64,000 nucleotides of DNA from Mytilus californianus (lineage: Eukaryota), in assembly GCF_021869535.1 (NCBI RefSeq), contig NW_026262690.1, positions 52,886,001-52,950,000 of the forward strand, read 5' to 3'. The notes beneath the pieces were generated by a model that saw only the letters and a program-made list of their open reading frames with translations, made no database searches and was not told the DNA's origin. Position 1 is the stretch's first letter; each line of letters starts with the position of its first letter. This document shows positions 13,818-16,050 of this stretch, piece after piece. The position numbers were made by a program, and so were the translations under genes.

Positions 13818-16050
13818 CCTCTTATAACATGAACAAAACCGAAATGGGTAGGATTCAATATGTAGGGCAAACTGGACGTGATTTTTTCATACGAACACAA
13901 GACCATCTATACCGCTTCCGCAGACCTAAGAAATTCAAAAGTTTAATTTACCTATATTTAAAAAAACACAAACACAATATCAAATTTATAAAATTCCGAC
14001 CACTTCAAACCGCCAAGAAACAACCAGGACAACAACATAATCAATTTGAAAATTCCTGTAAAATTTGCGAACTGTCTTGGATTAAACGACTACTGACAGC
14101 GTATCCCCATGTCGAAATGACAATATCATGGGCCAACGGAACATATCTAAAACTTCTTCTATTGATATCATGAATATTGCTGATAAAAGACAACGTAATA
14201 ATAGGTCTCATGGCAAACGTATCAATCAAAATCAACGAATTAAACATATAATAAATTAAAAACTTGACGATCTCCTATCTATATTCAAAAATAATGATAG
14301 ACATCAATTATTATGTAAACTGGCTCAAATACCAATAGTAAATTACACGATATTTTCAAGGAGTGTGACCCAATCTCGTTTTTCAGCACACTATATAAAT
14401 GTACCGTATAATTAAAGCTTTTTGTCGCCATAGGCTGTTACCGTGTATCAATAAACCTGAAGATCATAAAGGGCATTTTCTGAAAATTAAATATATTAAC
14501 AGAGGTAATGATTTTATCAACTTATCTAGAATATATAATGACTGGTCCATAATGACTCTACCACTCAAAACTTTATACCTCCCTACTTTGATAACACAGA
14601 ACCACATATATACATAAAAAAAACCCAACCAAAGTTCAATTTTTAATTATACGTCCGTAACATCAGATGTCAGTGTAGAAATAATACTTCTCTAACTTGA
14701 GACTGTGAATCGTCGAATTTTAGATATGGTCCCTATGGCAATGTTATTACGGGGGACCTCAATATCGTTTCAAGACCGAGAGGTCAAAAACTTTTTGAAA
14801 AAGGACCAAAATATCGTCCTCCATCTAAAATAGATTAGAAACAGTGTCGTCAGGTCATAAAAACACCCTTTCACCGTATTGTAAAAAAATGGTGTAAACG
14901 GGAAAAATCTGATAAAAAAAATCTCTTGATTTTTATCTAAATAAATGTATGAATGTAGTAAATGTTCGAATATCACATTTTGAAAATAATTTAGAAATAA
15001 ATAAAAGAGTACATAATACGCATATTTCTAGAATAAGAAACATCTTCAAGTACTCGCAAAGCAGCCAACAATATGGTGGTGGTATGACGTAATTACTACA
15101 CGAAGTTCTTAAGAATGAAAATAAATTCTTCTGCATTCAGGTCCGTGCGCTCCACAGAGAGTCATATAGTTAACAATCATATCATAACCACATCACAGCT
15201 TAATGCCCCTTCTGAGCATTTGAAGGTCCCTACTATGTATTGGTTACCTTTACTACACAAAAAACCTGTAAAATATCGTTTTATCTCTGCCTCTAGTAAG
15301 TGTTCTTAAACTTATCTTTCAGTGCTTTTAACTAGTTTCTAAACTACTATCAAAGAACTTATCATTAACTTTTGTAATAAAACATAGGCAAAAAATAGAA
15401 TTAACTATTTTTGGAGTGTAAATTTTTTTTGGATGTTTAAGATAAATTACGTGCCTTTGATGGTCCTTTTGATTCTGTTGACAGTTTTGATTTTTCAACT
15501 CTTTACGCTACACTTCCACACAATATAATCAAACAAAAGTTTTCCTATTTAATGGTCATTTGAAATATTCGTTTGCAAATATGTTCGTGCAACTCATTTA
15601 AACCATTCCTCTCTAAAGAGAAAGGTAAATATGCTTTATATACTTACTGGAGGTGTGATGAGATGATTGAAGCTGTCAATTTTCTCCTTGACAACATTTA
15701 CGTACGTTTCGGAAATAAAGTGTATCGACAGGATGTATGTATTCCTATGGGTACCAATTACACCCTTTAATAGCAGACTTGTTATTGTACTGTTATTAAT
15801 CACTGTTTATAGCCAAACTCAGTAAAGACCCATCTAAATTGCATTGAATTGATAAGTTCGACAACACTCAACGTTATCTTGATGATATTTTTCGTTAAAT
15901 AATGAAGAATTTTCTAAATATACTGCCGAAATTTACCCAAAGAAACTTACTTTAAATAAATCAAACATAAACGGTAATAACTGTCCTTTTCTATATTCAG
16001 ATATTTCAGTTTTACACGGGAAACGCTAGACAAAAATTTACAACAAGATC
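13818..16050 (+). mobile_element. Degenerate Naiad-type Penelope-like retroelement (second family; N-terminal GIY-YIG + RT)
   Basis: Frameshifted remnants in order: LIT(TGA)[48 protein letters not shown](TGA)RNYY; KVPTMYWLPLLHKKPVKYRFISAS; DFSTLY; FLLDNIYVRFG..IPMGTN; RYLDDIF; EIYPKELTLNK. Confidence 0.85.

Follow-up and report, generated by a model that had tools for sequence, protein, structure and literature searches.

Does a TGA codon found at the same site in two diverged transposon lineages mark an inherited selenocysteine (Sec) codon, or a cysteine codon that has decayed to a stop in a dead copy? This question is raised by a Penelope-like relic at 13558–16046 of a 64,000-nt stretch of the Mytilus californianus genome (the window), which also holds a younger relative on the opposite strand. 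The original prediction, made from the letters alone, was that the relic represents a second, divergent Naiad family that keeps TGA at two of the sites where the younger element has TGA, and that this supports ancestral Sec recoding. Both codons are present, the first in CTT ATA ACA TGA ACA AAA CCG and the second in GTG GTG GTA TGA CGT, and their homology to the young element was borne out: they align with the TGAs in LLT-U-NKP and IIV-U-RK, the second also by tblastn. A third in-frame TGA, at the first Cys of the CxC motif (LT-U-DC), had been overlooked. The features to which we refer, with lineages A, B (including an old branch, B′) and C as described below, are as follows.

12733–13559, minus: inverted pieces of B/C type (RT end and 3′ tail) adjoining the 5′ end of the relic; blastn 74–87%, no SECIS match
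13558–13826, plus: 5′ region, from a C-type Naiad; 78–86% to copies L171, L173 and L175 of lineage C at their 5′ ends
13820–14133, plus: GIY-YIG endonuclease segment, C-type; C allele at 31/33 diagnostic sites, clusters with C (bootstrap 80)
13830–13832, plus: TGA at Cys1 of the CCHH finger (predicted Sec); the site is TGA in 30/30 A, 30/31 B and 26/29 C copies, and Cys in 45/45 homologues
14134–14156, plus: switch point from C to B′; junction pattern unique to the relic, pure C pattern at 14 places
14157–16046, plus: linker and RT, assigned to old branch B′; of 127 diagnostic sites, 104 B and 21 C alleles
14698–14700, plus: TGA at Cys1 of CxC (predicted Sec); the site is TGA in 33/37 B and 16/22 C copies, TGT in 30/30 A copies, and Cys in 88/92 homologues
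15085–15087, plus: TGA eight residues past the DKA motif (DKA+8), predicted Sec, probably the ancestral state retained; the site is TGA in 30/30 A copies, 13/14 C copies and nine B′ loci, and a Cys codon in 50/51 loci of main B
22564–25862, minus: young lineage A Naiad copy, broken by one frameshift and one stop
25775–25777, 25682–25684, 25649–25651 and 24374–24376, minus: TGA codons of the young A copy, read from the sequence
22816–22880, minus: 3′ UTR hairpin of the young A copy, SECIS-like; matches Rfam SECIS_1 at 32.2 bits (E 0.019), under the gathering score of 35

The relic joins two sister lineages

A search with the whole relic retrieved lineage B, at 80–89% to the relic; lineage C is the sister of B, at about 80% to it. 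Upstream of the switch point the relic carries C alleles, and downstream mostly B alleles, the C-type alleles in the downstream part being common to other old loci that make up B′. By these diagnostic alleles the relic is a single, dead chimeric copy, with a 5′ part from lineage C and 14157–16046 from B′; a template switch in reverse transcription or later recombination could have produced it. The supposition of one second family with TGA at both sites does not survive this result, the two TGAs coming from two lineages. A recombinant subfamily resembling the relic was also considered and dropped: the exact-match junction pattern, which decayed copies could escape, matched the relic alone, and of the 29 sequences that best match its 5′ part, not one goes on as B.

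The relic is heavily decayed. At 13826, an internal deletion of ~380 nt took out the zinc finger along with the pre-GIY TGA, the region of the two upstream Sec sites, joining 13558–13826 to 13820 onward via 7 nt of microhomology (overlap 13820–13826). The CTTATA lies inside this microhomology, yet it matches lineage C coding sequence. From 14157 to 16046 there are many frameshifts and stops and 17 deletion runs relative to copy L004, and Naiad homology stops at 16046, so that the relic has no C-terminus, 3′ UTR or SECIS. The ATG at 13829 does overlap the first TGA, as had been pointed out; as a start codon, however, it is an artefact of a frameshift, since the GIQYVG frame is reached only through a 2-nt insertion near 13846 that is absent from all six aligned C copies. 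Immediately after the 3′ break, a broken ORF with a CNHEEADT-like motif occupies 16060–17000 (plus strand). It seems to belong to some other, unrelated element by which the relic was interrupted; 16043–16300 gave no significant Pfam match.

Lineage A is young, covered by RNA reads and interrupted by four TGAs

According to the available text of Craig et al. 2021 (PMC8557442), Naiads are Penelope-like elements with a GIY-YIG endonuclease (EN) N-terminal to the reverse transcriptase (RT), and with finger, KR-rich, CxC and DKA motifs. Lineage A has at least 40 near-identical copies at 98–100% (the best 40 of 5454 candidates). The first frame of the copy in the window reads HAKK-U-LTC, DIT-U-KT, LLT-U-NKP and DKAANNIIIV-U-RK, and in 23 of 30 fetched copies the four TGAs are the sole interruptions of a 1029-codon stop-to-stop frame. 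From the first ATG this ORF encodes 1002 amino acids, with EN and RT together. The 1002-aa protein gave no significant Pfam match; homologues P0013 and P0021, 39% identical, have GIY-YIG followed by RVT_1 in Pfam, and the family profile weakly matches the intron endonuclease in PDB 1ln0 (positions 52–141, E 0.008). A CX2-5CxxC finger, GIY-YIG core, CCHH finger, KR-rich block, CxC, GPKY, DKA and RT could be read in A, and the Naiad motifs (CX2-5CxxC, CCHH by its Cys, KR-rich, CxC, GxK(F/Y) and DKA) in A, B and C. As read from these motifs and homologues, the elements have the arrangement by which Naiads are recognised, a predicted GIY-YIG endonuclease N-terminal to RT in a single ORF. Insertion structures include graded 5′ truncation of B copies, the inverted piece adjoining the relic and, next to the A copy, incomplete pieces in tandem. 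Reads from four RNA runs span every one of the 30 bins of an intact lineage A element, on both strands and with coverage climbing toward the 3′ end, which is transcription of related sequence.

Lineages B and C consist mostly of dead copies, none being intact among the 20 + 20 long copies fetched, and their ORFs are majority readings from broken copies: 1032 codons with five TGAs in B, and in C five TGAs over 763 codons, beyond which coverage disrupts the frame. The majority ORF of A has four. Fuller copies of the relic's relatives, which the original prediction proposed to recover, do carry further upstream TGAs and a SECIS-like hairpin; the B′ copies have no 5′ ends.

The TGA at 15085 is most likely inherited

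The codon at 15085 presents a difficulty, since main B has cysteine at this site: 47 TGC, 3 TGT and 1 TAC among 51 loci (L016 was left out as B′, and L088 as a duplicate of L087). Cys codons in other copies had been named beforehand as a finding that would refute ancestral Sec. They are indeed what main B carries, but wider sampling indicates that Cys is derived and TGA inherited. In an alternative account, the nonsense mutation is private: a Cys codon turned into TGA in this dead B copy, leaving 13830 as the only inherited Sec codon. The preponderance of TGC/TGT in main B fits this idea, as does a background of TGA at young-context places. That background is small, however: with the newer GAC neighbour, the B-type GTTCTT context shows TGA at 2/100 places among the matches listed, of 154, whereas with the older GAA neighbour it does so at 9/18 B-type places (Fisher p 2.6e-7; a tenth match, L137, is of C type and was left out). 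Across dead copies, TG(C/T) has decayed to TGA in about 1.1–1.2% of cells (35/3059; 21/1719), against 70–100% TGA at the Sec sites, and in the relic itself 15085 is the sole TGA among 41 TG(C/T) triplets.

Because the B′ loci were found with a TGA-containing pattern, their TGA count is biased and the independent evidence comes from other markers only. Over 1.9 kb, the relic's other ancestral markers are shared by the nine B′ loci (54/71) and are rare in main B (34/750), with nine loci that have TGC beside the older neighbouring codon falling between (20/79). In a tree of 49 sequences, built with the DKA+8 site removed and rooted on A, C branches first, followed by a ladder of TGA copies that includes the relic, with the TGC copies nested inside (bootstrap 99); supports along the B′ ladder are weak (31–80), and one TGA copy, L199, is placed within the TGC clade. 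The TGA context of the 15085 site occurs at 230 places in all and the TGC context at 296; the first 20 of the 230 are mostly lineage C. TGA contexts, marker sharing and the tree together largely refute a private nonsense mutation, which we consider to have little chance of being correct. We conclude that the 15085 TGA was most likely inherited. Given that DKA+8 is TGA in all 30 A copies, in 13 of 14 C loci (found with a 5′ query) and, as UGA, in all the published clam and spider families, TGA is likely the ancestral state at this site. Main B, then, likely returned from Sec to Cys at DKA+8 and acquired a TGA in its zinc finger.

TGA alternates with cysteine codons at six sites

Six sites carry TGA as the majority state of at least one lineage. 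Besides the three in the relic, these are the second and third Cys of the zinc finger (Cys2 and Cys3) and the Cys preceding the GIY motif (pre-GIY). Cys2 is TGA in A 30/30, B 29/31 and C 19/19, and pre-GIY in A 29/29, B 27/31 and C 18/23. Cys3 differs between lineages: TGT in A (30/30), mostly Cys in C (15/20, with TGA in 2) and mostly TGA in B (24/30, with Cys in 5). Among 120 database homologues, counting at each site those that cover it, Cys is found in 41/41 at Cys2, 41/41 at Cys3, 42/42 at pre-GIY and 106/116 at DKA+8; the CCHH and CxC counts are listed above. TAA or TAG is never a lineage state at these sites, and lineage switches are exclusively between TGA and TG(C/T).

Four young B copies (L096, L102, L105 and L108) have TGT at Cys3, where most B copies have TGA, and two of them group together in a tree (bootstrap 91), a hint that Sec gave way to Cys a second time. 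Eight homologues (P0005, P0009, P0010, P0028, P0029, P0030, P0055 and P0089), 45–52% identical to A, have Trp at DKA+8, four of them also at CxC Cys1. These are possibly Sec Naiads of other species in which gene callers read TGA as Trp under another genetic code.

Selection, a 3′ hairpin and host tRNA-Sec point to selenocysteine

Downstream of the TGAs, dN/dS is 0.12–0.22; B against C gives 0.137 in the 668 codons that follow the first TGA. A and B share three TGAs at 66% amino-acid identity, with synonymous sites saturated (pS 0.79). Since the frames evolved under purifying selection after the first TGA, the TGAs were probably decoded in active ancestors. In all three lineages a hairpin with AUGA, AA and UGAU cores follows the TAA; these cores are present in 34, 34 and 33 of 36 B copies, respectively, and in 11/11 C copies, and the fold has z of −3.3 to −4.1. 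Matches to Rfam SECIS_1 reach 25.5–32.2 bits, all under the gathering score of 35, and lie at the expected place in 6/7 A/B loci; of 14 C/B′ loci scanned, several of which have no 3′ end, 1 gave a match. In the window, the hairpin of the A copy was the sole match, with none for the relic. The host genome has two tRNA-Sec loci over the cut-off (79.6 and 77 bits), with the anticodon TCA read in one. By standard selenoprotein-prediction criteria, which are established knowledge, we put at roughly 85% the probability that the three relic TGAs are inherited codons that were read as Sec in active ancestors by means of a SECIS-like hairpin in the 3′ UTR. Ancestral Sec recoding, as first proposed, is thereby supported by two inherited TGAs at conserved Cys positions, although its premise of a single second family was wrong.

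The TGAs could alternatively be leaky stops, or be edited (A-to-I, giving UGG and hence Trp), so that low levels of full-length protein are made without Sec. Sec is predicted here from sequence, the SECIS scores fall under the cut-off, and the Trp residues in the homologues described above are what editing would give, although these may be TGA translated under another code. Several observations make such readings quite improbable: the six sites are Cys, not Trp, in most homologues; the codon switches described above involve only TGA and TG(C/T); and the 3′ contexts of the TGAs vary (TTA, AAA, AAC, CGT, CAA and TCT). As a weak test, the 40 best-supported RNA differences from the intact A copy, beyond which there are 685 further ones, include none at the four TGAs. 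That these lineages were non-coding and travelled as passengers of Cys-type Naiads acting in trans, the TGAs being null mutations that became fixed, is scarcely credible: B and C are mostly dead and Cys-type Naiads are widespread, but the low dN/dS downstream of the TGAs and frames of ~1000 codons without any other stop are not those of passengers.

Under the Sec reading, a single element mRNA would recruit the host Sec machinery through its SECIS, four or five UGAs would be decoded to give the full EN-RT protein, and failure at any of them would truncate the protein ahead of the RT catalytic core. Sec would stand in place of Cys as a likely metal ligand. The TGAs at pre-GIY, CCHH and DKA+8 would be old, being common to the published clam Naiads; Cys2 would have become TGA before A split from B/C, and CxC Cys1 on the B/C stem. 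Later, in B and in either order, DKA+8 would have changed from TGA to TGC and Cys3 gained TGA, the 3′ part of the relic having been inserted before the DKA+8 reversal.

Comparison with published Naiads

The available text of PMC8557442 describes four Sec-encoding Naiads with three or four UGAs each, all four having UGA at DKA+8. The clam families Naiad_Mmer and Naiad_Scon resemble the present lineages in their N-terminal GIY-YIG and RT and in UGAs at pre-GIY, CCHH Cys1 and DKA+8, sequence around the two endonuclease sites is visibly similar, and their 3′ SECIS has a SECIS-like counterpart here. Both sites flagged at the outset are therefore already published Sec sites: the original prediction named the elements correctly but overlooked this work. 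In contrast to the clam families as described there, the present lineages have four or five UGAs, the extra ones being at Cys2 (A, B and C), Cys3 (B) and CxC Cys1 (B and C), and main B has Cys at DKA+8. The core of the SECIS-like hairpin lies ~60 nt (A) or ~100 nt (B) past the stop here, and the hairpin includes a small third stem, whereas the published ones are given as type I, starting 1–21 nt past the stop. The spider families Naiad_Sdum and Naiad_Smim, treated in the same text as an independent origin, share UGA at pre-GIY and DKA+8, and Sdum also at Cys2, but have zinc-finger Cys1 recoded, and their CCHH finger retains Cys. Cys-type bivalve Naiads (Naiad_Mcor, Mgal, Bpla, Mphi and CGi) share domain order and motifs, with no in-frame UGA noted in the available text; the Cys-type database homologues P0011–P0025, 32–39% identical to A, have Cys at nine of nine checked sites. 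Relative to that text, what is new is a total of five UGAs, UGA at CxC Cys1 and at Cys3, and Cys at DKA+8 in a Sec family. A search of literature outside subscription journals found no other paper on Sec in Naiads.

Implications and further observations

In PMC8557442, Sec transposons are represented by four consensus sequences; here, three related lineages are found in one genome. Lineage A, being young, RNA-covered and intact in many copies (23/30 sampled), offers ready material for tests of Sec incorporation, and the dead copies may provide a within-genome record of Sec gains and one loss at single sites, which host selenoproteins rarely allow to be dated in this way. The traceable reversal at DKA+8 suggests that a Sec site of all published families can work as Cys. 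For annotation, reading TGA as stop misses the endonuclease half of these elements. It is conceivable, although we think it unlikely, that the Sec codons hold transposition in check according to selenium, as a throttle would, with selection on the number of recoding events rather than on site chemistry, because B swapped DKA+8 for Cys3 and so stayed at five UGAs. If this were true, host selenium supply would gate retrotransposition, and the dead copies would be a dated record of two-way Sec–Cys exchange.

Some observations stand apart from the argument. At L035:1100-4800, RNA reads of a second organism differ at many fixed sites, with the four TGAs untouched in the best 40 differences. A tandem array with 728-base spacing at G000:C154:27755505-27807263 is tRNA-like and scores 42.8 bits against tRNA-Sec, under the cut-off. 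With Rfam models, no hammerhead match was found inside the scanned elements; type I hammerhead ribozyme matches at 5471–5514 and 44509–44552 (plus strand; 27.5 and 25.7 bits, under the cut-off) possibly belong to retrozymes or other Penelope-like elements. On the minus strand, 21699–22291 and 37269–37957 come from the 3′ part of an older subfamily within lineage A and match the young copies at 84%. Finally, matching sets of old Naiad-like fragments at ~26990–31660 and ~38990–43540, ~12 kb apart, suggest a local duplication.
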